The position numbers and the translations under genes are program-made. This document shows positions 14,474 through 64,000 of a stretch of 64,000 nucleotides of DNA, piece by piece. The notes beneath the pieces were generated by a model. It was not told the origin of the DNA. It did no database searches and worked only from the letters and a program-made list of their open reading frames with translations. This DNA is from Octopus sinensis. Lineage: Eukaryota. Location: NCBI RefSeq assembly GCF_006345805.1, contig NW_021836127.1, positions 124,001 to 188,000 on the forward strand. The letters are read 5' to 3'. Numbering within the stretch: the first letter of the stretch is position 1; each line of letters opens with the position of its first letter.

Positions 14474-17400
14474 TTAAACCGAAAGACTAAATATTTGATT
14501 GAAAGAGTTTCCAACAATTTCACGGGCATTTGCATTAGGACAAATCACATCCACAGATGCTGTCTTTTCATAATACGAAACCACAAGTCTTGCTAGTACC
14601 AACATACCATTGTCAAATTTCATCGATAAATGAAACACATTCCGCCCCAAATCGTCAAAATTTACAAACAAGCTAAAAATATTCAACTTCTTCAACTCCG
14701 CTGACAAAATACCTACAAATCAAACACGAATGTAAGCCTTGATCGGGAAATGGAAGTGTGGGTAAATCGATACACGTTTTATAATCAGGCTGCACATTGT
14801 ACCACCATGAATTCTGATAGTTAGCCAAATTTCCACTCGGGGCAAACAAAACTGCCCCGTGTACTAACGTCTGGATAACTCCTTGGTTCATATTGACCAC
14901 AAACTATCTCAATTGTCCAAAAAGTACCTTTGGATAGATTAAAGTCGGAGATTTTGCCATAAAACATTGCTGAAAACTGATTGCTGTCTCAAAAGACACG
15001 TGATTGTGTGAGTTTGATATAACTTGAGGTTGAAACGGTACAATTAGCCCAAAACTGTCAAGGTTGTCAATTTATACAGCTTCAAACCTATTTTCTGAGA
15101 CTGACACGTTTTTAAACACCAACTGCTGTGCTGAACTTCCAAAAATATCCACTTTGGCAATAATAGCTTCCCCTCTACTCCAGAAAACATCCATTCGTAG
15201 AGACCCTGAACTCACTTTACAACTCCAAGACTACAAATCAATCAATCAACTCAAAAACTAACATAATTGGTCCTTTGAACTTGGCTTTGTGCCTTTACTG
15301 ACATGAACATTGAGTCGTCGTGACTGTAGGGAGGCGGATCAACCAACTCGTCCATGTTTGAGCCAAACTCTCCCATTAAATTGAGGGAGGACGGCTCAAT
15401 ATGTGAACTCTGGGGTCGAATGTATTAAAAAACTAATATTAAACTCACATAATACCAAAGAATCATCCAAAATATTATCAGGAGTCGACTCTGATTTTTT
15501 CGTGTTGTGAGGAATTAGAAACTGTTCGTCAAATCCCAGTAAATCATTCAAAAGATTCCCAGATTGACCACTAACACGAACATTGGTTAAATCAGTTGTA
15601 TTATCCTCACGTCTATAAAGGTTTATAAATTCACTAACGTTCTAGAAACAGTTGCCACGCTATTTTCCTGTCCATATGCAAGAGATGGAGGCTTGTGAGT
15701 AATAGAAGCCATGCTTCCAATGTGTTTTATCATTTCACTGAGTAGCTTTGGGTCAAGTGAGTCAATTTTTTCACTTATGGCTGGCTTTGTACTCAAAATA
15801 ATCTCCTTTGCTGCCTCAGGGTCACTCGACAGGAGTCTCCAGTAAATAAATCCCCGATCTCTTAAATCAGGATTTAGACTGTCCTAATGACTATAAAATG
15901 AAGAAATGTACTTTTGTGCACAAATCCAATATTTTCTCTACCAAATCCTGTCCTGACGGATTCTTGAGATAATATTTGACAACTGAAGTCAGTAGTTGTA
16001 GTTGCACCTGTTTTATTCTAGTTTATTAAACAACCTGAATATCCTCGTCAGAGAATGTCTCGATAAATGAGTTTAGTAGTTCATCTGCATTTTCTATTCG
16101 TTCAGAATACTCTCCGACAATCCAAACCATCGCTGCTCTAAAAGTAACCCCTGATAACCCACCTTGACTCTGGTTCATCCAACAAATCAAAATTCTCACA
16201 AAAATTTCCAATTATACTTTCATATTTATTCGGATATTTTCTAAATATATCCTAAACTAGTTATATCCATCAACCCGAATGACTACTATAGCCTCTTGGA
16301 TGATATAATCGACTTTAGACTTTACAAGTTCCTGCAGAGTGAGGACACACTGTTCTGCCACATCGGGGATCTTAATGGCACAACAACCAATGGCACGGAC
16401 CGACTTTCTTACAAAGTCAATGTCTACTCCTGTGGCGTACCTGAACAGTCATAAACTCACACAAACTCCTTCAATTCAGGCAGAACTCGGCTTATGTTGT
16501 CAATGTTAGTCAGACGTGTTATAATCTCCAGTTTCTCTAATTTTACATAAATCATGTCGTTGTATTTGACAAAGAAATTTGCGACTTCATTACACAACAC
16601 GTTTGGCCTGAAATTTTTAGGGTGGTTAACCTCTTTTGTAGGATTAGATTAATGTTACGTAACCCCACATATTGGATCTCTGAGGGGGCGGAAAGCATAG
16701 TTATGAGAGGATTTGACAGTTTTTTGTCACACGAGCTTAGAAATTCTCATCAGTCAGTCGTTCCATCATCCTCATCATCACTTTAATTGTCGACAGAACA
16801 ACTCCTGCATTCGAATGAGACAACCTCTGAGTAACACGTTCACAAATTCTATATTAATTCCAATGTGGCTACGTTTTGGCCTCTTTTTCTGTGCTTGGTT
16901 GATAGGCGGAGATATAATCCAAAATAGTGATCTGTCCCCATTCTGTACACTCGTTGAGAGCATTCATCAACAGATTAAGTTCACTTTGGGATATTTCTGC
17001 ATTCTTTCCCAAGGAAATCTGCTGCATCTCAGACATGGTGGCCACAGCATTAGCCACGACCTACACAATCAGATAACAGACCACCATAGAATTGGAATCT
17101 GTGAGGTAAGACTTTATATTTGAGAAGCCTTGGTCTTCTACTAGTTTAGGATTCAGTTTGTAGAGTTTTCCAATGCAAAGAACTGCAGTTTTCCTTACAT
17201 AGGGATCACTGTCCTTTAGACATTTACGAAGTGGGTCACATAAATATTCTGTCACACAATTCACATTCATACAAGCCATAGTTCTGATTGCAAGGGCACG
17301 AACGAGGGGAAATGGCTCGTTTGTGTCCTAAAATGAGTGGTGGGATATGACTTTGACAAATGAATTGACTGCCATTATAGCCATGTCGGGGTTTGAGTGG

Positions 17401-17720
17401 GAATAGTTTAACAGATATATATAAACCAGTTTTTTTAATTCCAAATCAGAGGTTTGACTGCAATTCAAAACGTCAACAAACAGGGAACTAAATTACACAC
17501 GTCAGTTATTTTGAAAAAATGTTTTTATTCAAAATATGTCAAGTATGTGATATTTTTGTACCTTACATCTTTTCCTGTGGTCATGAAAAATATCACTTTC
17601 TTTACAGCGTCCTTTCTTTTAAAAGGTTTATCGCTGGTTAATTCTGATTTTATTTCATTTAATTCGCCTATATTTGTTAAATATATATTTTCAACTGTTT
17701 TTGGCGTATGTTGAGGACAT
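14474..17720 (-). CDS. AP1B1: AP-1/AP-2 complex beta-adaptin, multi-exon (AP1B1 and AP2B1 not distinguishable); one apparent frameshift near 16750
   Basis: Spliced translation: [78 protein letters not shown], followed by C-terminal ear domains. Confidence 0.95.
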
Positions 17721-33420: not shown

Positions 33421-34919
33421 AAGTCGGTTCAAAAAAAACGTGACCACTTGAAAAATATGTGTTTTTCTTAATTTTTGTATCTTATTTTTAAAAATTTTCA
33501 AAGAATACTAAATTTAAAATCGTTTAATCTACATGATTCATTATTTATTATTTCATGATCGGCTATATTCCCAAGCTAACCAAGTATTTTAAAAAAACCT
33601 TTGTTCAAAAAAAACGTGACCACTTATTTTTGTTACACTTTTTTTTACAATTACTTGATTTTTCTTTAATAAATTAATTTCAAAATAAAGCACGATGTCA
33701 TCTCAAAGTTTCCTGATCAAAAAATATTCAATAGCGGAACACTTAAGGCGAGGATGCTCACAAAGAACAATCGCCAAAGAATTCAATGTTTCAAAATCTT
33801 TTGTGCAGCAAGTCAGCGCGAAAATGAAAAACGGAATGCCTTTTGAACGTGCCGTTGGTTCTGGTCGTCCAGAAAAACTTACTCTGTCGATTAAAAACGC
33901 AATATTGACGAAATATGGTCAAAATCATTTTTCCACTTTACAAGAAATTGCAAATTACATTGAATCTGAGCACAATTTACGACTTTCTCGATCAACAATA
34001 AGGAATGCTTTATATTCTTTTGGACTAGAAAATCGAAAACCGTGTAAAAAACCGTTATTACGACCAGTAAACGTGTTAAAGAGAAAATTATTTGCTGAAA
34101 ATTATTTAGGGATCTCGTTTGAAGATCTAGGCAAAATTATTTTCTCCGATGAAACAAAATTTGAGTTATTTTCAACAAATAAAAGAAATAATGTTCGATA
34201 TTTTCGCGGTGAAAAATATCATTCGGCCAACATTTTACCTACAGTTAAATTTGGAGGAGGAAGTATTCTAGCTTGGGGCTGTATTTCGTCCAATGGAGTA
34301 GGCCGGCTCGTTTTTATTGACGGAATTATGACGGCTGCGCATTATGTGCAAATTTTAGCACAAAATTTAAACCAATCCGCCAGAGAAATGAGTTTAACTG
34401 ACTTTGAGTTTATGCACGACAACGACCCAAAGCATACAGCTCGAGTCACAAGGAAATTTCTTAAAGAAGAAAAAATCAAAACAATTAATTGGCCTGCACA
34501 AAGTCCAGATCTCAATCCAATCGAGCATGTGTGGGCCTATATAAAGTTCCAGTTACGCAATATGGGAAGGCTTGATAAGGAAACTTTAAAGCAAGAAGTT
34601 TTGAAAATCTGGAACAACCTCCCCCCGGAACTAATAAGAAAATATGTTTTAAGCTTCCACAAACGAGTTCTGGAAGTATATAAGGCGAAAGGGAAGCATA
34701 TTAATTACTAATCGAATTTTGGTCACGTTTTTTTGAACAATGTTTTTTTGGAATATGTAGTTACTTTGAAAATGTAGCCGACAGTGACAAAAATAAAAAT
34801 TGAAATGTGTAGATAGAAAGGTTTTAAATTTGGTATTCCTTGGAGATTTTACATAAGAATCTATAAAAATTGAAAAAAACACACATTTTCAAGTGGTCAC
34901 GTTTTTTTTGAACAGACTG
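33421..34919 (+). mobile_element. Tc1-family transposon with IR/DR-type long TIRs
   Basis: Outer and inner repeats GTTCAAAAAAAACGTGACCA at 33427 and 33603, with inverted copies at about 34718 and 34890. The right end is ...ACAGACTG|TA; the left terminus reads AAGTCGG with no TA. Confidence 0.92.
33695..34711 (+). CDS. Intact Tc1 transposase, DD34E, 338 aa
   Basis: HTH, GSGRP, FSDETKF, WGCIS, HDNDPKH and SPDLNPIEHVW; 34 residues between D and E by manual count. Confidence 0.95.
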   Translation: MSSQSFLIKKYSIAEHLRRGCSQRTIAKEFNVSKSFVQQVSAKMKNGMPFERAVGSGRPEKLTLSIKNAILTKYGQNHFSTLQEIANYIESEHNLRLSRSTIRNALYSFGLENRKPCKKPLLRPVNVLKRKLFAENYLGISFEDLGKIIFSDETKFELFSTNKRNNVRYFRGEKYHSANILPTVKFGGGSILAWGCISSNGVGRLVFIDGIMTAAHYVQILAQNLNQSAREMSLTDFEFMHDNDPKHTARVTRKFLKEEKIKTINWPAQSPDLNPIEHVWAYIKFQLRNMGRLDKETLKQEVLKIWNNLPPELIRKYVLSFHKRVLEVYKAKGKHINY

Positions 34920-39389: not shown

Positions 39390-42082
39390 TGTCACATGGG
39401 TGATCAGACCCCTATGGGCAACCTGGCCTTTACGTGTTTCCATGGCAACTACATAGCAAATATTTACTAAAAGGCCAACTATTAGAAAGGCAAACGATCC
39501 GAACTAATGATTGAACTTTAAATTTTTGAGAAAATGATGTTTTATATTTAAACCATGCTTGCTTTAAAATAGTAAAATTATTTACAACATTAGCAAATTA
39601 TAATGTGAATTATTTTTATTTTTGATAATATAAATTGCAACATTAGCAAATTATAATTTATATCAAATTTTTTGCAAAGTTTGTAACAACTTTAACTCTA
39701 ACCTTAATTCAAACCCTAACGTTGGCAAGTGACAACATAAATATATTCAAAATCTAACCCTAACCTTTACCCAAACCCTAACGTTGGCAAGTGACAACAT
39801 AAATATATTCAAAATCTAAACCTAACCTTAACCCAAACCCTAACGTTGGCAAGTGACAACATAAATATTCAAAATCTAACCCTAACCTTAACCCAAACCC
39901 TAACGTTGGCAAGTGACAACATAAATATTCAAAATCTAACCCTAACCTTAACCCAAACCCTAACGTTGGCAAGTGACAACATAAATATTCAAAATCTAAA
40001 CCTAACCTTAACCCAAACCCTAACGTTGGCAAGTGACAACATAAATATTCAAAATCTAACCCTAACCTTAACCCAAACCCTAACGTTGGCAAGTGACAAC
40101 ATAAATATTCAAAATCTAAACCTAACCTTAACCCAAACCCTAACGTTGGCAAGTGACAACATAAATATTCAAAATCTAACCCTAACCTTAACCCTAACGT
40201 TGGCAAGTGACAACATAAATATTCAAAATCTAACCCTAACCTTAACCCTAACGTTGGCAAGTGACAACATAATATTCAAAATCTAAACCTAACCTTAACC
40301 CAAACCCTAACGTTGGCAAGTGACAACATAAATATTCAAATCTAACCCTAACCTTAACCCAAACCCTAACGTTGGCAAGTGACAACATAAATATTCAAAT
40401 CTAAACCTAACCTTAACCCAAACCTTAACGTTGGCAAGTGACAACATAAATATTCAAAATCTAACCCTAACCTTAACCCTAACGTTGGCAAGTGACAACA
40501 TAAATATTCAAAATCTAATCCTAACCTTAACCCTAACGTTGGCAAGTGACAACATAAATATTCAAAATCTAACCCTAACCTTAACCCTAACGTTGGCAAG
40601 TGACAACATAAATATTCAAAATCTAACCCTAACCTTAACCCTAACGTTGGCAAGTGACAACATAAATATTCAAAATCTAACCCTAACCTTAACCCTAACG
40701 TTGGCAAGTGACAACATAAATATTCAAAATCTAAACCTAACCTTAACCCTAACGTTGGCAAGTGACAACATAAATATTCAAAATCTAACCCTAACCTTAA
40801 CCCTAACGTTGGCAAGTGACAACATAAATATTCAAAATCTAACCCTAACCTTAACCCTAACGTTGGCAAGTGACAACATAAATATTCAAAATCTAACCTT
40901 AACCCTAACGTTGGCAAGTGACAACATAAATATTCAAAATCTAACCCTAACCTTAACCCTAACGTTGGCAAGTGACAACATAAATATTCAAAATCTAACC
41001 CTAACCTTAACCCTAACGTTGGCAAGTGACAACATAAATATTCAAAATCTAACCCTAACCTTAACCCTAACGTTGGCAAGTGACAACATAAATATTCAAA
41101 ATCTAACCCTAACCTTAACCCTAACGTTGGCAAGTGACAACATAAATATTCAAAATCTAACCTTAACCCTAACGTTGGCAAGTGACAACATAAATATTCA
41201 AAATCTAACCCTAACCTTAACCCAAACCCTAACGTTGGCAAGTGACAACATAAATATTCAAATTCTAACCCTAACCTTAACCCAAACCCTAACGTTGGCA
41301 AGTGACAACATAAATATTCAAAATCTAACCCTAACCTTAACCCTAACGTTGGCAAGTGACAACATAAATATTCAAAATCTAACCCTAACCTTAACCCTAA
41401 CGTTGGCAAGTGACAACATAAATATTCAAAATCTAACCTTAACCCTAACGTTGGCAAGTGACAACATAAATATTCAAAATCTAACCCTAACCTTAACCCT
41501 AACGTTGGCAAGTGACAACATAAATATTCAAAATCTAACCCTAACCTTAACCCAAACCCTAACGTTGGCAAGTGACAACATAAATATTCAAAATCTAAAC
41601 CTAACCTTAACCCAAACCCTAACGTTGGCAAGTGACAACATAAATATTCAAAATCTAACCCTAACCTTAACCCAAACCCTAACTCAAAATTAAATGATGT
41701 TTCTGCTGACGATTCTTCAGACATTTTTGACAAAAATTGGAAGCCTTTTTGGCCAACCGGTGTTTGCTTCGAGCATTCATATCCTCCGGGAATATCCCGA
41801 TTAACGCTTCCTTAATTTGATTGTATTCGTTCATATTTCTGACGTAACCCTTAAACCCAGACATCACAAAGTGTGAGTAACCACGCTGTTAAAATTAATA
41901 TACTTTTGGGTAAGCCATTTTTAAAAGATAATTCAAATGTAATTTTAAATTAGAATAATTGATTAATCTACACTCTTCCATATATAAATTGCTATATTCA
42001 ATATTTAATAGCTGTTCTGTGGTTTCCATAGAAACACGTAAAAGGACTGGCTGCCCATAGCGACATAGTCGCCCATGTGACA
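39390..42082 (-). mobile_element. TIR element with TGT...ACA ends (Ginger-like), interrupted by a minisatellite
   Basis: About 65-bp imperfect inverted repeats TGTCACATGGG...TTTACGTGTTTC at 39390-39453 and 42018-42082, with TA on both flanks. Track ORF 41679..41867 (YNQIKEALIGIFPEDMNARSKHRLAKKASNF) resembles the N-terminus of GIN/Ginger integrases. Confidence 0.6.
39698..41683. repeat. Minisatellite of 48/54/60-bp units with telomere-like hexamers (about 35 units)
   Basis: A constant core ACGTTGGCAAGTGACAACATAAATATTCAAAAT followed by a variable number of CTAACC/TTAACC/CAAACC hexamers. Confidence 0.98.
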
Positions 42083-55841: not shown

Positions 55842-57477
55842 CAGTCAACCCTCTCCATAGTTAACTCCCTCTATAGTGAACAGGCCATATTAATGCAATT
55901 CACAATAACAAATATTACTAATTTAAAAATGTATAATATCATTTATCGAAATATTTTGGTGTTCACTATTAAAGAATAGTTAAATTTAATATTTTTACAT
56001 CGGTATATTTAAAATTCTTTAAATGAATAAATTGCACGTTCTACAGTTGTTAGCATGGTGGGAAATCGAAAACGCCTGCCATTTTTTTTTCAAAAGAAGT
56101 ACACACAGCGTGATTTATTGTTTATTTCAAAATTCTGAAAAATTCTGAAGGAATACTTACTTTTCTAGATGACCAAAAAAGAAGAAAATTTACTTGTCCA
56201 AGTCTCAATCATTCGACAGAGATCTATTTGAATGGTTCGTTAAAAAACGATCATTTGGGTTCATATTCAATGAATATCTTTTGAAGTTGATGTCTTTAAA
56301 AATGGCGAAAGTTTGTATTATTCAAGGATTTCAAGCATCAAATGGATAGCTTAAGAAATTTAAAAATCGATATTGAATTCCTTCCCGTGCTTTGTGTGGG
56401 GAGAATAAAATAGTTAAAACCTCTATGATTGAAAATTTTACAAAAAGTCTCAATAGAAAATTAGAACAATACGAAACTGGATTGTTTTTAATCTTTTGGT
56501 GAACAGAAAATTAGCTGTTGACTCGGAAAAAAATCTGTTGATTTTTGAAAATGATCAAATTGACGACGTCAATTTTACAAAGAACTTTTTGAGAAAACTA
56601 ATACAGCAATATCGAATTGAAGAGGAAGATGAACAAAATTATGTTCCGACACTATATGAAGCTAATGAATATGCGAAGGCACCTGAATTTTTGTTTCTTG
56701 AGAATGATTGTGAACAAAGAGGAAAGTATACGAAATACAAAAAATTTTTGAAAATTATCAAACTAATCATTCTCAAAAAATAACCAATTACGTGATTAAA
56801 CTAAATAATCGTTGTAATTATATTTTAATTATTGTTATTTTGATTCCTTTTTCAAATTTTTTTGTTCACTATAGACCAGGGGTGTCAAACATAGGTGCGG
56901 CTCTCAGCGTACTTTGGCAAACATAAGTGCGGTCTGATTTAATGGCTATAAAATACAAAAAATATTTTTTTTTTTTTTTACATTTAATTAAAATTTTTAA
57001 TTGTATTTTTAAATCGCGTTTTTCAATGTCACGTGCTTCTTCTGGAATAAAAAAGAAACGGTGCTTGAAAGATGAACGGAGAGTGTTTCAAGATAAATGG
57101 GAACTTCTCTATTCTTCCACAAGGGTTGATGGAAAAATACATTGTTTGATATGTAACAAGTTAATCGCTATACCGAAAGAATACAACCTAAAGAGAAATA
57201 ATTGTATCTCAACCTAAAGAAGCATAATTGTATCTAAAAAAAGATTTCAATCCTCTGGAAGCAGCTCTCACTAAAATTAAAGGGCGATGATTGAATAATT
57301 TAGTTTCTTTTATTTTGGTTATTCATCATAATAAATATCAGAATTAATTTTCTCTTAATGAGAAATTATTATGAATGCGGCTCTCGAAGCGAAATGAGTT
57401 TGACACCCCTGCTATAGACAATAGTTAATATGATGTTTTGACGTGGACATTTTGTTCACTATAGAGAGGGTTGACAG
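55842..57477 (+). mobile_element. Tigger/pogo-like element, degenerate, with a nested hAT
   Basis: TA|CAGTCAACCCTCTC and GAGAGGGTTGACAG ends; LFEWFVKKR...FQASNG*LKKFK. Confidence 0.8.
56877..57411 (+). mobile_element. Non-autonomous hAT (SPIN-like) element
   Basis: TIRs CAGGGGTGTCAAAC / GTTTGACACCCCTG; perfect 8-bp TSD CTATAGAC; RVFQDKWE...HCLIC...KEYNLKR. Confidence 0.93.
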
Positions 57478-57681
57478 AACTATTTTAATTTGGATTATGA
57501 ATCATTTAGACAAACTTGTCTTTCTATTAACAATTTTTGTCTTTATTAATCAAGCTCTTAAGACTAAATCATTTAATGTCACGTGCCCAGACCACGTATC
57601 TACAATGGACTTCAGAAGAGATAATTTATCGCTAATCCTAATAAAATTATTCTTAATATTTAAAATTAATCTATTAAATAT

Positions 57682-59454
57682 CATGTCAACCGCCTCTTTC
57701 CGAGCTCCCCTGTCATGCCCTTTCTTTGGCCCTCTTTGTTTTCGAAACTGATAACTTTACTGAATTTCAGTCTCTTAGACAAACTTATCCAAACCTAATT
57801 GTTCTCTCTTCGAATAAGTCCATTGTTAACCGAAGTATTGGTGGTCAAGGCGTATTCTCGAAATTTTCCTGTGCGCCCTTAGCATCACATGAGGTTGACT
57901 TGGACAAACCCTGCAATGTCCCTTTCGAGCGTATGCGTGATGAGGTTAGGGTACACTACCTCACTATTGTTAATGAAGCTCTTGCAGTATTTCTTTTGCC
58001 GGACAACCAAGACTCCTTGTTAGGGCACGGATGGGATGGTCACAATATGTCCTCTAATAAACAATGTTCCAAGAAAATTTTGGAAAGTAAAAGTAAATCC
58101 AAGGTCCAATGTAAATCCAAGAAAACACAGCCCCGACAACGCCGTGCACGCGCAAAAAAGAAAGCGGAAACCTGGGCGGATGGTTATGTCTCCGACAGGG
58201 ATGTAGACAAATTAGCCTCCATTATTGACCAAACCTTCAACAAAAATCGGGACCATGCCGATTCAGCGATAAGGCTTGGAACTCGAGCAGTTTTGTAGGG
58301 GAGCCGCGTTCAAGAGATCTTTTAAAGACTCCAACCGCAGGTAAGTGGGCGCAAGCATTCATGCGGGTGCTATTCCCGATTCGGTATAGCCAGGCCAAAA
58401 ATCCCGAAGCGGTGACTGCGCTAATGGAGCGTTATAACTCAGCTATGGCAAGACTTTCTCCACTGTTCAGTCCTGACCAGAACCTTGTTGCAAAGTTCTC
58501 AATCAAGTATCCGAAGAACACACACTGGATAAACTATGTTGTCTCTTAGACAAGATGTTAGGCCTGAACCCCGCTGATTCTACAGCTGTTTTGAGATTCT
58601 GTACCGTTGGGTTCTATAATTGGGGTAACGCGGTGTTATCTCGTATTATCACCCTCGGAACCGTTCTCAAAACTTCGGAGGAAAGATCACTTCTTATTCA
58701 AGGGCTCTTTGTGCCCACTTTCCGTGATGAGGTGAGAAAAGCTCTTGCACATTTTTGTGAAGTAACCTCGAGTGATCACCTCTGTGTATACCAAAAAGGG
58801 TTGGGCTTAGTGAGAGCTTCTGCCTTTAGCTCCACTTCGTTGCCGGGTTTGTATCTCTTTATGAGCACAATCGGAGGCATGCTAACAGTTACGAAATTGT
58901 TTTATTCGCGAAGTGTTTTGGAGACCGAAGGTCAAATTATTAACGAGGTTTTGTTCAGCTTGATGTACAAGAACTCTGTGCCTGATGTCGGGTGGCTTGA
59001 ATTAACCCCTGAGGAATCAGCTCCTCGACAGGCACAAGAGCGTAGCTTAGCTAAAGAGGCCATTGACGATCCTTCATATTCTTTGACTCCTAGCCAGCAG
59101 AAAATATATGAAGAAATACTCTCTTCTGCGGAATTTAACGCTATAAAAGAATTGAATGCCAGGCCCAAGTCTGTGTATGATGAAGTTTTAATGCGTTTGA
59201 GGAAGAGAATGCGCCTTCATCCTCATTTGACTACCGCTGAATTCGCCATAGTGAAGAATCGTATTAAGACCATAGTCACTCAAGCAAACACAATCCTTTC
59301 TTTCATAAGCAACATGAGTCCTCTTGACCACCCAGAAATCTTGTATCCCGGAGGCATACCGGAATTATCACTTAATCAAATCGCAGAGAAATTTGAAATA
59401 GAGTTCAAATATTTTTTTGAATTTTTTTCCAAATCCGATAGTATAACCACCTAG
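57682..59454 (+). pseudogene. Endogenous viral element, rhabdovirus nucleoprotein (N)-like, frameshifted
   Basis: GC-richer intronless block. LRFCTV...NAVLS, LFVPTFRDEV and VYQKGLGLVRASAFSSTSLPGLYLFMSTIGGML parallel the rhabdovirus N core (RYGT..DCAAL, WI...VADE, PYLIDFGLSSKSPYSS..NP.FHF). Recognised by eye only. Confidence 0.65.
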
Positions 59455-59905
59455 GCTCGGTACACCCAAGGCCTGTGACATAATAATTTATAAAAATAAT
59501 GTAGCAAAAATTAAATTTGTGCTCAGTTTAAAAAAAGTCTAGAAAAAAAATATAACAATAATGATTAAAATTTGGTAGAAATTAATCATTCTAGATTTTT
59601 AGGCGCTAAAATACAAGATCGCCAAATCCGGAAACAAATAAATAAAAGTTTGCCATAAGAATATAAAGAATTGAAGTTTATATCAAAAAATAAGGCAAAA
59701 TTCAATAAATAAAGATAAATGAAAAGATTTCAAATAAGCGATATAAACAGATTGAAAGAATAAACTGACAAATATTACAAAATGATGAAATTTCAGATAA
59801 TTTATTAATTAAAAGAAACTACATCGCAAAATATTCCTTCTAATCCAATTAAATAAAAAAATAAAGATTGATCAAATAATGTAACAAGACAACAAGGTAT
59901 GTCAC
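59391..59905 (+). repeat. Dispersed repeat with LTR-like ends, homologous to 2193-2850
   Basis: TGTGACATA at 59474 and its inverse TATGTCACA ending at 59905; near-identical to 2193-2570. Confidence 0.7.
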
Positions 59906-60226
59906 AAGAGTGCTCACACGTGGCACAATTTATTATGTTTTCTATTAATAATTGGGTAACTAAAAATTAAGATAATTTTAATTAAAACACAATTCTACCT
60001 AATAGCTTATAAACAGTGTAAATACCAGAGGGGATATCTCAATGATGGCAAATTGTGAAACAGACTTGCGAGCAGATTTTGCAGATTAGAGCAGATTGTT
60101 TCCTTGTAACTTTTGCTCAAAGTAATTTTCAAGGAGTTTGTTTAGTTCTAGCCATATTTTTTTTATTTCAGACAGAACCGATTCAGACGAATTATTTTTG
60201 TTTTATATTATTCCGAAAACAACATT

Positions 60227-60399
60227 ATGAATGAATGAATGAAGAATTTTATTGTAGGAAAGAAGAGCGAGACAGAAACTTAGTGCGGAAAGTAATTTTT
60301 GACGAGACGATTGCTTTGGGCATTCGAGCTCTTCCATGGTTCGTCCGCTTTCTCTGTCTATGACTGATGAGACTGATGAAGAAAGAAGAAAGTAGGTTC
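60227..60399 (-). mobile_element. 3' end of a LINE related to the element at 1-1871
   Basis: RTNHGRAR...LQ* with AATAAA and an (ATTC)n tail; aligns to about 1770-1871 (GGACGAA, AGAGCTCGA, TCGTCTCGT, CACTAAGT, TACAATAAAA). Confidence 0.8.
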
Positions 60400-63300
60400 A
60401 TGCTTCTGAGCCTGTATGCTTCTGAGCCTGTATGCTTCTGAGCCTGTATGCTTCTGAGCCTGTATGCTTCTGAGCCTGTATGCTTCTGAGCCTGTATGCT
60501 TCTGAGCATGTATGCTTCTGAGCCTGTATGCTTCTGAGCCTGTATGCTTCTGAGCCTGTATGCTTCTGAGCCTGTATGCTTCTGAGCCTGTATGCTTCTG
60601 AGCATGTATGCTTCTGAGCCTGTATGCTTCTGAGCCTGTATGCTTCTGAGCCTGTATGCTTCTGAGCCTGTATGCTTCTGAGCCTGTATGCTTCTGAGCC
60701 TGTATGCTTCTGAGCCTGTATGCTTCTGAGCCTGTATGCTTCTGAGCATGTATGCTTCTGAGCCTGTATGCTTCTGAGCCTGTATGCTTCTGAGCCTGTA
60801 TGCTTCTGAGCCTGTATGCTTCTGAGCCTGTATGCTTCTGAGCATGTATGCTTCTGAGCCTGTATGCTTCTGAGCCTGTATGCTTCTGAGCCTGTATGCT
60901 TCTGAGCCTGTATGCTTCTGAGCCTGTATGCTTCTGAGCCTGTATGCTTCTGAGCCTGTATGCTTCTGAGCATGTATGCTTCTGAGCCTGTATGCTTCTG
61001 AGCCTGTATGCTTCTGAGCCTGTATGCTTCTGAGCCTGTATGCTTCTGAGCATGTATGCTTCTGAGCATGTATGCTTCTGAGCCTGTATGCTTCTGAGCA
61101 TGTATGCTTCTGAGCCTGTATGCTTCTGAGCATGTATGCTTCTGAGCCTGTATGCTTCTGAGCATGTATGCTTCTGAGCCTGTATGCTTCTGAGCATGTA
61201 TGCTTCTGAGCATGTATGCTTCTGAGCATGTATGCTTCTGAGCCTGTATGCTTCTGAGCCTGTATGCTTCTGAGCCTGTATGCTTCTGAGCCTGTATGCT
61301 TCTGAGCCTGTATGCTTCTGAGCCTGTATGCTTCTGAGCCTGTATGCTTCTGAGCATGTATGCTTCTGAGCCTGTATGCTTCTGAGCCTGTATGCTTCTG
61401 AGCCTGTATGCTTCTGAGCCTGTATGCTTCTGAGCATGTATGCTTCTGAGCATGTATGCTTCTGAGCCTGTATGCTTCTGAGCATGTATGCTTCTGAGCC
61501 TGTATGCTTCTGAGCATGTATGCTTCTGAGCATGTATGCTTCTGAGCCTGTATGCTTCTGAGCATGTATGCTTCTGAGCCTGTATGCTTCTGAGCATGTA
61601 TGCTTCTGAGCATGTATGCTTCTGAGCATGTATGCTTCTGCGCCTGTATGCTTCTGAGCCTGTATGCTTCTGAGCATGTATGCTTCTGAGCCTGTATGCT
61701 TCTGAGCATGTATGCTTCTGAGCCTGTATGCTTCTGAGCCTGTATGCTTCTGAGCATGTATGCTTCTGAGCCTGTATGCTTCTGAGCATGTATGCTTCTG
61801 AGCCTGTATGCTTCTGAGCATGTATGCTTCTGAGCCTGTATGCTTCTGAGCATGTATGCTTCTGAGCATGTATGCTTCTGAGCCTGTATGCTTCTGAGCA
61901 TGTATGCTTCTGAGCCTGTATGCTTCTGAGCATGTATGCTTCTGAGCATGTATGCTTCTGAGCCTGTATGCTTCTGAGCCTGTATGCTTCTGAGCATGTA
62001 TGCTTCTGAGCCTGTATGCTTCTGAGCATGTATGCTTCTGAGCATGTATGCTTCTGCGCCTGTATGCTTCTGAGCCTGTATGCTTCTGAGCATGTATGCT
62101 TCTGAGCCTGTATGCTTCTGAGCCTGTATGCTTCTGAGCATGTATGCTTCTGAGCCTGTATGCTTCTGAGCCTGTATGCTTCTGCGCCTGTATGCTTCTG
62201 AGCCTGTATGCTTCTGAGCCTGTATGCTTCTGCGCCTGTATGCTTCTGAGCCTGTATGCTTCTGAGCCTGTATGCTTCTGCGCCTGTATGCTTCTGAGCC
62301 TGTATGCTTCTGAGCCCGTATGCTTCTGAGCATGTATGCTTCTGAGCCTGTATGCTTCTGAGCCCGTATGCTTCTGAGCATGTATGCTTCTGCGCCTGTA
62401 TGCTTCTGAGCCTGTATGCTTCTGCGCCTGTATGCTTCTGAGCCTGTATGCTTCTCAGCCTGTATGCTTCTGAGCCTGTATGCTTCTGAGCATGTATGCT
62501 TCTGAGCCTGTATGCTTCTGAGCATGTATGCTTCTGAGCCTGTATGCTTCTGAGCCCGTATGCTTCTGAGCATGTATGCTTCTGAGCCTGTATGCTTCTG
62601 AGCCCGTATGCTTCTGAGCATGTATGCTTCTGCGCCTGTATGCTTCTGAGCCTGTATGCTTCTGCGCCTGTATGCTTCTGAGCCTGTATGCTTCTCAGCC
62701 TGTATGCTTCTGAGCCTGTATGCTTCTGAGCATGTATGCTTCTGAGCCTGTATGCTTCTCAGCCTGTATGCTTCTGAGCCCGTATGCTTCTGAGCATGTA
62801 TGCTTCTGCGCCTGTATGCTTCTGAGCCTGTATGCTTCTGAGCCCGTATGCTTCTGAGTATGTATGCTTCTGAGCCTGTATGCTTCTGAGCATGTATGCT
62901 TCTGCGCCTGTATGCTTCTGAGCATGTATGCTTCTGAGCCTGTATGCTTCTGAGCCCGTATGCTTCTGAGCATGTATGCTTCTGAGCCTGTATGCTTCTG
63001 AGCATGTATGCTTCTGAGCATGTATGCTTCTGAGCCTGTATGCTTCTGAGCCTGTATGCTTCTGCGCCTGTATGCTTCTGCGCCTGTATGCTTCTGCGCC
63101 TGTATGCTTCTGAGCCTGTATGCTTCTGAGCCCGTATGCTTCTGAGTATGTATGCTTCTGAGCCTGTATGCTTCTGAGCCTGTATGCTTCTGAGCATGTA
63201 TGCTTCTGAGCCTGTATGCTTCTGCGCCTGTATGCTTCTGAGCCTGTATGCTTCTGAGCCTGTATGCTTCTGAGCATGTATGCTTCTGCGCCTGTATGCT

Positions 63301-64000
63301 TCTGAGCATGTATGCTTCTGAGCCTGTATGCTTCTGAGCCCGTATGCTTCTGAGCATGTATGCTTCTGAGCCTGTATGCTTCTGAGCCTGTATGCTTCTG
63401 CGCCTGTATGCTTCTGAGCCTGTATGCTTCTGAGCCTGTATGCTTCTGAGCATGTATGCTTCTGAGCCTGTATGCTTCTGAGCATGTATGCTTCTGAGCC
63501 TGTATGCTTCTGAGCATGTATGCTTCTGAGCATGTATGCTTCTGAGCCTGTATGCTTCTGAGCCCGTATGCTTCTGAGCATGTATGCTTCTGAGCCTGTA
63601 TGCTTCTGAGCCCGTATGCTTCTGAGCATGTATGCTTCTGAGCCTGTATGCTTCTGAGCATGTATGCTTCTGAGCCTGTATGCTTCTGAGCATGTATGCT
63701 TCTGAGCATGTATGCTGTATGCTTCTGAGCCCGTATGCTTCTGAGCATGTATGCTTCTGAGCCCGTATGCTTCTGAGCATGTATGCTTCTGAGCCTGTAT
63801 GCTTCTGAGCATGTATGCTTCTGAGCATGTATGCTTCTGAGCCTGTATGCTTCTGAGCATGTATGCTTCTGAGCCTGTATGCTTCTGAGCATGTATGCTT
63901 CTGAGCATGTATGCTTCTGAGCCTGTATGCTTCTGAGCATGTATGCTTCTGAGCATGTATGCTTCTGAGCCTGTATGCTTCTGAGCATGTATGCTTCTGA
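60400..64000. repeat. 16-bp satellite (TATGCTTCTGAGCCTG)n, about 225 units, running off the window
   Basis: Continuous tandem array with single-base variants (AGCATG, CGCCTG, AGCCCG, CTCAGCC, AGTATG). Confidence 0.99.

Follow-up and report, generated by a model that had tools for sequence, protein, structure and literature searches.

Fossils of rhabdovirus nucleoprotein (N) genes are common in arthropods, and the recognition of another N-like element would therefore be ordinary in itself. Target-specific LINEs are well known, and non-LTR retrotransposons of this kind occupy multicopy genes such as rDNA (R2), U2 (Utopia) and the SL genes (NeSL). LINE enzymes can jump between templates, and U6-L1 chimeras are products of template switching. 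Dicyemids are 30-cell parasites. In Aedes, antisense non-retroviral endogenous viral elements (EVEs) lie in piRNA clusters, as described in two reports (PMC6797480; bioRxiv 10.1101/2022.08.22.504762). The rhabdoviruses of parasitic flatworms are exogenous and absent from flatworm genomes, according to PMC9241645.

The DNA analyzed here (the window) is a stretch of 64,000 nucleotides, positions 124001-188000 of contig C12598 in a 2.72 Gb assembly (G000) of chromosome-size and small contigs. It holds a non-retroviral EVE flanked by host sequence, which is present in DNA reads and shares its contig with intron-bearing genes. The explanation that we favor has, taken as a whole, a little better than an even chance of being right. 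It is that a patchwork of viral fragments at the start of a histone gene was likely written by a LINE and would be read in antisense, in what is likely a dicyemid.

GC content is 0.444 over 57682-59391, against 0.289 in the left flank and 0.262 in the right. The profile bears out the GC-richer block without intron-like breaks that a sequence-only reading had described. Three forward-strand frames span the block (57678-58298, 58229-58549 and 58477-59454), and the last, of 325 amino acids, carries all the motifs quoted in that reading: LRFCTV at 58591, NAVL at 58627, FVPTFRDEV at 58708, GLVRASAFSSTSLPGLYLF at 58804, IGGML at 58870 and YSR at 58903. The right border is real, since multi-copy host sequence begins at 59391/59392. 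The left border had been placed at an ATG at 58047, but viral DNA begins near 57682, some 365 nt further left. Its left neighbor is a 60-nt piece of a dispersed host repeat (57622-57681, forward strand) with 21 further matches of 89-100% identity in the assembly. This 60-nt motif was considered as a capture signal and dropped, because it belongs to the dispersed repeat. No target-site duplication was identified for the element, and Rfam gave no match at 56-61 kb of the window. Further left (56877-57411) is a short element that we take to be hAT-like; it is bounded by terminal inverted repeats and has duplicated 8 nt of its target. Elsewhere in the window there is an unbroken 340-codon frame of a Tc1-type transposase (33689-34711), and a 54-nt satellite with TAACCC-like telomeric units (39712-41677).

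The block had been read as one decayed N gene. Its sequence very probably represents instead a chimera of three RNA-virus fragments, comprising a piece of a likely replicase ORF, a central portion of N from one lineage and the greater part of another N. Fragment 1 (57682-58154, forward strand) corresponds by nucleotide and amino acid matches to the C-terminal part of an ORF that we call X, and ends in a basic stretch. The ATG at 58047 does not open a single N frame. It lies in frame inside the upstream ORF running from 57678, which matches a different viral protein family. We also rejected the ATG as the start of a separate second ORF, since no stop precedes it. Positions 57733-58153 share 96% of their nucleotides with a copy on C6250. 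At the protein level the fragment, counted from 57681, has 52% identity to the end of a 491-amino acid ORF in L044, whose family has 17 matches. Another family X copy (L212) has TGSP..NT and YGDD motifs, corresponding to polymerase motifs B and C, and a weak match to RdRP_1 (E = 0.0095, under the cut-off). In a diverged copy (L217) the ORF is joined to the basic tail in one frame, as in the window, with the ATG likewise in frame inside it. X thus likely represents the tail of a +ssRNA virus replicase. Searches with X patterns in viral contigs found no relative, and the ESM Atlas gave no match for X.

Fragment 2 (58155-58273, forward strand) is the middle of an N of a second rhabdovirus-like lineage (family C), with 94, 88 and 82% nucleotide identity to copies on C12418, C9068 and C9004 that themselves align to the N core; L069 has a weak match to Rhabdo_ncap (E = 0.01). 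A 21-nt filler (58274-58294) separates it from fragment 3 (58295-59391, forward strand), an N of family A with both ends missing that was assigned by Rhabdo_ncap, the family profile and hhalign. Fragment 2 covers the same region of N as roughly 58500-58610 of fragment 3. Of the two or three frameshifts or stops reported for the supposed single gene, comparison with copy L002 leaves, within the main N piece, a single frameshift near 58510 and a single in-frame gap of 6 nt near 58400. The stop at 58296-58298 sits at a junction between fragments. The length of about 448 codons from the ATG had been taken as typical of N, and is on these sequence comparisons a coincidence. The unbroken sister frame used for the length comparison and for folding, a family B N followed by a P-like ORF (L046:8256-9900 and L047:1-1029, on C6088), has 582 codons, and the N piece in the window aligns to approximately residues 178-526 of it.

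Short-read contigs from DNA run X1 cover much of this structure. Contig 7 (57668-58274) bridges the junction of fragments 1 and 2 with more than 100 nt on either side, and contig 8 follows fragment 3 over 58296-58990 without gaps, breaks included. The two contigs leave the assembly at 58274 and rejoin it at 58296. They therefore part from it across the 21-nt filler, and the filler junction is unconfirmed. Among the short-read contigs listed, the junctions at 57682, 58274-58296 and 59391 are not bridged. Read depth is 164 on one side of the filler and 162 on the other. Run X1 covers the element and the neighboring gene at similar depth (115-166 and 214-242 respectively), while run X4, from the same sample, contains almost none of the stretch, which is no proof of absence. 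Run X3 yields nothing but short pieces. With regard to putative germline inheritance, the read data give near single-copy depth and allelic differences at the element, along with one 213-nt match in another study.

The homology of the element to N is virtually certain. Its ORF matches the Pfam family Rhabdo_ncap (PF00945) with 19 bits (E = 7.5e-4) against a cut-off of 26, and this is the sole or best family match for it and for five other copies. The sister copies score 13-17 bits, and none reaches the gathering cut-off. We searched a profile of 11 genome copies (A1) against 1.84 billion proteins and obtained three matches. The best-scoring (P0001) was set aside as spurious, being a repeat helicase whose match of 56 positions falls outside the N core. 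The other two (P0002 and P0003) are Rhabdo_ncap proteins (188 and 144 bits), matched with E = 1.3e-5 and 9.6e-5. Alignment to one of these by hhalign gave a probability of 95.8 over 154 columns. The profile comparison thus reaches true N proteins, although the family match itself stays below the Pfam cut-off. The nearest N found is about 25% identical. A wider profile, again of genome copies only (A2), ranked four vesicular stomatitis virus (VSV) N entries first in the PDB (E = 0.35-0.38), with the core aligned at VSV N residues 186-312, including the RYGT and SSKSPYSS regions.

VSV N was also compared at the level of structure, the two-lobed N fold being the feature sought. The AlphaFold model of the 582-residue sister frame (fold A1) is unusable, with pLDDT 35 and no Foldseek match. 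A model of the core of a family B sister copy (A3; pLDDT 49) ranks VSV N first. Its top 10 Foldseek rows are VSV N (best E = 0.006), and all 11 VIA rows with Z of 5 or more are Mononegavirales N (Z = 5.2-6.2). The alignment used for this model contained two true rhabdovirus N rows, and the fold evidence is therefore partly circular. Single-sequence searches with the N of the window found nothing in the protein collection, the PDB or the ESM Atlas features. Profile A1 found no N in the PDB, profile A2 none among 7188 candidates from a 5.8-billion collection, and A1 patterns gave no confirmed relative in viral contigs (24 stretches) or metagenome contigs (360 stretches). These searches bear out a divergent, rhabdovirus-like N fossil with no close relative in the protein collections. 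The one Rhabdo_ncap family match in the assembly, on C9, was discarded as low-complexity noise, in an AT-repeat region with nine stops. Gene-to-gene linkage is absent for the N in the window; membership of the rhabdovirus family is likely.

Further copies and linked viral genes were among the checks that the sequence-only reading had proposed, and dozens of N, P, G and L pieces, which it missed, are present on small contigs. The N core has 36 matches among the 48 candidates scored in the assembly, all on small contigs. Four N lineages are represented. L has 33 matches, four of them on chromosome C23, and the small-contig pieces include several L lineages. For one L piece the best matches have 35-42% identity, and all three that carry a name are rhabdoviruses. 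Rhabdovirus G is found on small contigs above the Pfam cut-off, as are gene-junction signals TGAAAAAAACTAACA. A broken, rhabdovirus-like P?-M-G-L block with TGAAAAAAAC gene junctions occupies L049:1782-7868 on C9340 (reverse strand), where G matches two Pfam families above the cut-off. The Rhabdoviridae gene order N-P-M-G-L, with poly(U) ends and AACA starts, is seen in part, in L049 and in L046/L047, and family A N has no physical link to G or L in viral order. Tandem units on C12441 and C9300 (L111, L112, L121 and L122) contain pieces that resemble the beginning of the P? ORF at 62-81%.

Between the window and L002, pN is 0.049 and pS 0.89, and two family B pairs behave alike; one row pair with L003 was left out of this dN/dS analysis as out of register. 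Such values indicate that the copies go back to separate captures, from viruses whose earlier evolution had been under purifying selection. On this sequence evidence the N, P, G and L pieces represent several rhabdovirus-like lineages and separate captures. A degraded mononegavirus L piece on C23 (L034-L036, 23140149-23141653) lies on a chromosome-size contig with low CpG, and is therefore likely a separate EVE of the mollusc's own. Other RNA-virus fossils were observed at L057:5955-6782, L062:8540-9901, L128:6972-7322 and L011:1922-2797. They include a nodavirus-type methyltransferase above the Pfam cut-off, an RdRp that is presumably partitivirus-like and an ORF that we take to resemble a partitivirus coat. 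Matches to the 'noda' query beyond residue 200 are LINE sequence and were excluded from the counts.

The fossil had been taken for one in the main animal's germline. In its introns, its CpG and its beta-adaptin sequence the contig is unlike the chromosomes, and it is highly likely that it comes from a second animal co-assembled with the mollusc, a dicyemid. The chromosomes carry mollusc haemocyanin, with 35 of 37 matches on C5 and C28. The beta-adaptin gene of the window (15650-17500, reverse strand), which marks the contig as the second animal's, has GT-AG introns of 20-24 nt, in agreement with the tiny-intron animal of the sequence-only reading. Six internal introns are of this size; the first and last two intron calls (20, 16 and 17 nt) were treated as unreliable. 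Gene identity was checked on one exon (17088-17327), which matches Adaptin_N with E = 4.7e-22, and the chromosomal counterpart on C20 is only 61% identical. The CpG observed/expected ratio spans 0.55-1.11 across 37 loci on small contigs. For loci on chromosomes it lies mostly within 0.19-0.68, the exceptions being haemocyanin and histone loci at 0.85-0.99. In the literature consulted, introns this short have been reported among animals only for myxobolids and dicyemids (PMC13644364, PMC6543705, PMC6736024), with dicyemid introns given as a median of 27 nt (PMC6543705) or a mean of 38 nt (PMC6736024).

The published dicyemid 18S primers F3 and R2 (PMC6778094) provide a further marker. F3 has four sites in the assembly, each with one mismatch and all on small contigs. 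At one of the four (L223) R2 also matches exactly, 1398 nt away. Both of the two primer-site copies scanned are SSU rRNA, and the 18S copies are degenerate and lie on contigs other than that of the window. The four copies (L223-L226) are only 81-90% alike over long matches. A beta-adaptin exon at 91% identity (L040) and a GC-richer Piwi-like locus (L203) were also seen, and these differences together hint at more than one parasite species or at decayed copies. On C12598 itself the beta-adaptin exon occurs three times at 100% identity (141088, 245945 and 264771), reflecting either segmental duplication or assembly redundancy.

Three other accounts of the locus and its host can be judged on this evidence. 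A single N gene beginning at the ATG at 58047 and decayed in the main animal's germline would explain the motifs and the coincidence of length. But two lineages each supply the same N region, the ATG falls within a different ORF and the contig is unlike the chromosomes, so that this account is scarcely credible. We consider it very improbable, if a shade less so, that the chimera is an artefact of assembling noisy long reads from a low-coverage contaminant. Host genes do have frameshift-like errors, C12598 has its three identical beta-adaptin exon copies, and the short-read contigs do part from the assembly at 58274-58296. But contig 7 bridges the junction of fragments 1 and 2, depth is even around the filler, analogous chimeras recur on many contigs, and a run from another study holds 58693-58905, a 213-nt match with one difference. 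The second animal might also be a myxozoan or some other small-intron parasite, which has a small chance of being correct. PMC13644364 gives myxobolid introns as 22-27 nt, and the 18S copies are degenerate and on other contigs. Against this, the host in the co-assembly is a mollusc, the renal organs of cephalopods are where dicyemids live (PMC12953835) and both published dicyemid 18S primers match L223. A dicyemid therefore remains the host that we prefer.

To the right of the element lies a broken histone unit. It begins with a non-coding, AT-rich spacer (59392-60061, reverse strand) from a derived histone unit that is present in many copies. The spacer has 40 matches listed, all on small contigs, and in most other copies continues into an H2B-type promoter that this copy lacks. 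We had considered this right-hand repeat as a LINE 3' UTR and rejected that assignment, since the repeat is the histone unit. It is followed by the degenerate first ~30 codons of histone H3 (60062-60155, reverse strand, ATG at 60155), identified by alignment to the intact H3 of L135 (Pfam Histone, E = 1.7e-40). Next comes the H3 5' flank (60156-60227, reverse strand), recognized in the sequence by TATAAAA at 60207-60201 and pointing towards the viral pieces, which are antisense to it. The flank would be expected to act as a promoter. About 760 nt separate it from the viral copy, and it has been interrupted by the 3' end of a LINE, which carries a (CATT)n tail and runs in the direction of the histone (60228-60365, reverse strand; 96-98% identical to the L006 and L008 copies). 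By eye this LINE piece resembles the LINE 3' end at 1730-1871 of the window. A second derived histone unit was observed at 1223-2584, where the H2B-type flank meets a LINE 3' end in antisense in place of a viral piece. A 16-nt satellite fills 60400-64000 (224.6 copies by repeat count, L060) and runs at least 8 kb past the window. Divergent H2B, H3, H4 and H2A genes are clustered on small contigs, with an upstream motif common to them. The H2B genes there (L131-L150) are multi-copy and 53-57% identical to the chromosomal H2B, and many copies of this parasite H2B are broken by retroelements.

We surveyed this arrangement with an exact 27-nt H2B-type flank, which has 35 matches, all on small contigs, and sampled 30 of these. 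On the side that the promoter faces, a viral piece lies within 600 nt in 18 of the 30 copies and is antisense in all 18, although for three of these pieces the match is a distant one (32-36% identity). On the other side, which served as control, this is so in 1 of 30. The remaining faced sides have an intact H2B (4), a LINE-tail junction (2), only LINE pieces (5) or nothing recognized (1). After removal of shared junctions some 15 independent ones are left (sign test, p = 6e-5). The motif was taken from virus-joined copies and inexact native promoters are therefore under-counted, a bias that affects the count of 18 in 30 but not orientation. Outside the sample, two of the five copies stand by H2B on C13428, one after an antisense X piece and two on C13217. 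In the reverse test, 5 of 32 viral loci found by N or L searches (L001, L002, L003, L005 and L017) are joined directly to histone parts. These joins are at the 3' end; there are none at the 5' end in the 32 loci save two weak 53-nt matches. L008 keeps a short remnant of a histone part. There are counter-examples: in L049 an H2B start is followed, after about 1 kb, by the P-M-G-L block in sense orientation, and the P_x-like pieces of L111, L112 and L122 are oriented as the nearby unit.

LINE sequences occur at these same genes. LINE 3' tails lie in sense before H2B in 4 of 21 loci (L132, L136, L137 and L138), before H2A in L115 and before H3 in L001, L061 and L122. Behind the promoter in L179/L096 stand first a LINE 3' end and next family C N, both antisense. 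On C10696 (L057:513-4867), H2B codons 1-27 are in frame with a LINE ORF1, followed by an endonuclease-RT ORF, and at three further loci (L143, L144 and L152) H2B or H3 N-terminal codons are fused in frame to LINE ORF1. Such fusions suggest a LINE that borrows histone promoters. We infer that a histone-targeting LINE is the probable origin of the chimeras. The LINE would cut histone 5' flanks, and the break would prime cDNA synthesis from the promoter side. The enzyme would then switch from LINE RNA, or from one viral mRNA, to the next, so stacking the fragments. Transcription from the retained TATA flank could give antisense RNA against the viral pieces, which the parasite's PIWI might process into small RNAs (piRNAs) against live viruses. 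A PIWI-clade gene is present on the small contig C9497 (L191), closer to Piwi-like 1 (E = 1.3e-24) than to Ago2 (6e-13). From the sequences at hand, this antisense small-RNA role is a possibility to which we give somewhat less than an even chance. More tentative still is the view of the dicyemid histone cluster as a heritable antiviral memory, in which the LINE would repeatedly write rhabdo-, noda- and partiti-like fragments backwards behind scattered histone promoters, and the antisense cassettes would feed PIWI.

The same origin might bring no function at all, if histone 5' flanks are simply hot spots for breaks or LINEs, and antisense orientation follows from the geometry of promoter-side priming on mRNA or from the purging of sense fusions that make viral protein. 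We give this reading a substantial minority share of the probability, and rate a neutral hot spot almost as probable as the feeding of piRNAs. LINE pieces do occur at the same sites, in antisense (L176, L178, L179 and L183) and in sense (L166, L172 and L184), 27 of the 32 viral loci have no join to histone parts, and the histone unit in the window is degenerate. Pulling the other way, viral pieces are the commonest neighbor (18 of 30 promoter copies against 4 with an intact H2B) and PIWI has been kept. Orientation is also stricter for viral pieces (15:0) than for LINE pieces (4:3; p = 0.023, with small numbers and post hoc grouping). A different origin, in which pieces integrated elsewhere were later joined to histone units as DNA by recombination or a rolling-circle element, appears improbable. 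It would account for the hairpin region that the spacer has in common with another dispersed repeat, for chimeras duplicated by descent (L162, L175 and L190) and for the 96% identity of fragment 1 to a copy elsewhere. Shuffling gives no strand rule, whereas some 15 independent junctions lie near one site in one orientation, and the LINE tail that stands end-on to the promoter and continues into N in L179/L096 fits a single cDNA. Writing by a histone-targeting LINE thus remains our preferred origin.

The fossils record at least four N lineages, several L lineages and repeated capture in a likely dicyemid. One study reportedly found rhabdoviruses in cephalopods. The fossils bear on that report, and if our reading is true, some rhabdoviruses credited to cephalopods would be viruses of their kidney parasites. 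They are equally relevant to the spread of rhabdoviruses through spiralian parasites that PMC9241645 proposes. A parasite genome among the small contigs would moreover mislead surveys of EVEs or genes of the host. Our literature search found no report of a dicyemid virus, although the supplements of PMC11097642 may list viruses in dicyemid RNA. In mostly open literature (including 10.1101/2023.11.03.565523, PMC9241645, PMC11727581 and PMC12953835), there was no matching report for host, architecture or co-assembly. The element is of a known kind, a non-retroviral EVE, in a host phylum that is likely new, and its antisense placement behind histone promoters is apparently a new architecture.

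In comparison with known systems, the N in the window resembles that of VSV (PDB 2gic, 3pmk and 7uml) in the alignment of the core, in the G, L and junction signals of its sister pieces and, with the partial circularity noted above, in the ranking of N-type folds. It differs from VSV and other rhabdovirus N in its identity of about 25%, a match below the Pfam cut-off and an unbroken sister N of 582 residues, and neither three protein searches nor two contig collections yielded a close relative. The flatworm rhabdoviruses are likewise divergent and belong to spiralian parasites, and viruses credited to a host there proved to be the parasite's, as PMC9241645 describes; being exogenous they are unlike the fossils here, and the likeness is drawn from descriptions rather than sequences. 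With R2, Utopia, NeSL and the U6-L1 chimeras the locus shares insertion in a multicopy gene, promoter use (L057) and foreign RNA joined to a LINE 3' end. What differs is the target, a histone 5' flank, and the RNA-virus passengers, a combination of which our literature search found no case. There is a likeness of architecture to the EVEs of Aedes, which are short viral fragments made by retrotransposons, stacked, and antisense to transcription borrowed from host genes, with PIWI present in both; the putative cassettes here enter this comparison as sequences. In Aedes the helpers are LTR elements, and transcription runs into the clusters from the 3' end of genes upstream. Here LINEs are the neighbors, and right behind dispersed histone promoters the coding part has given way to the fragments.
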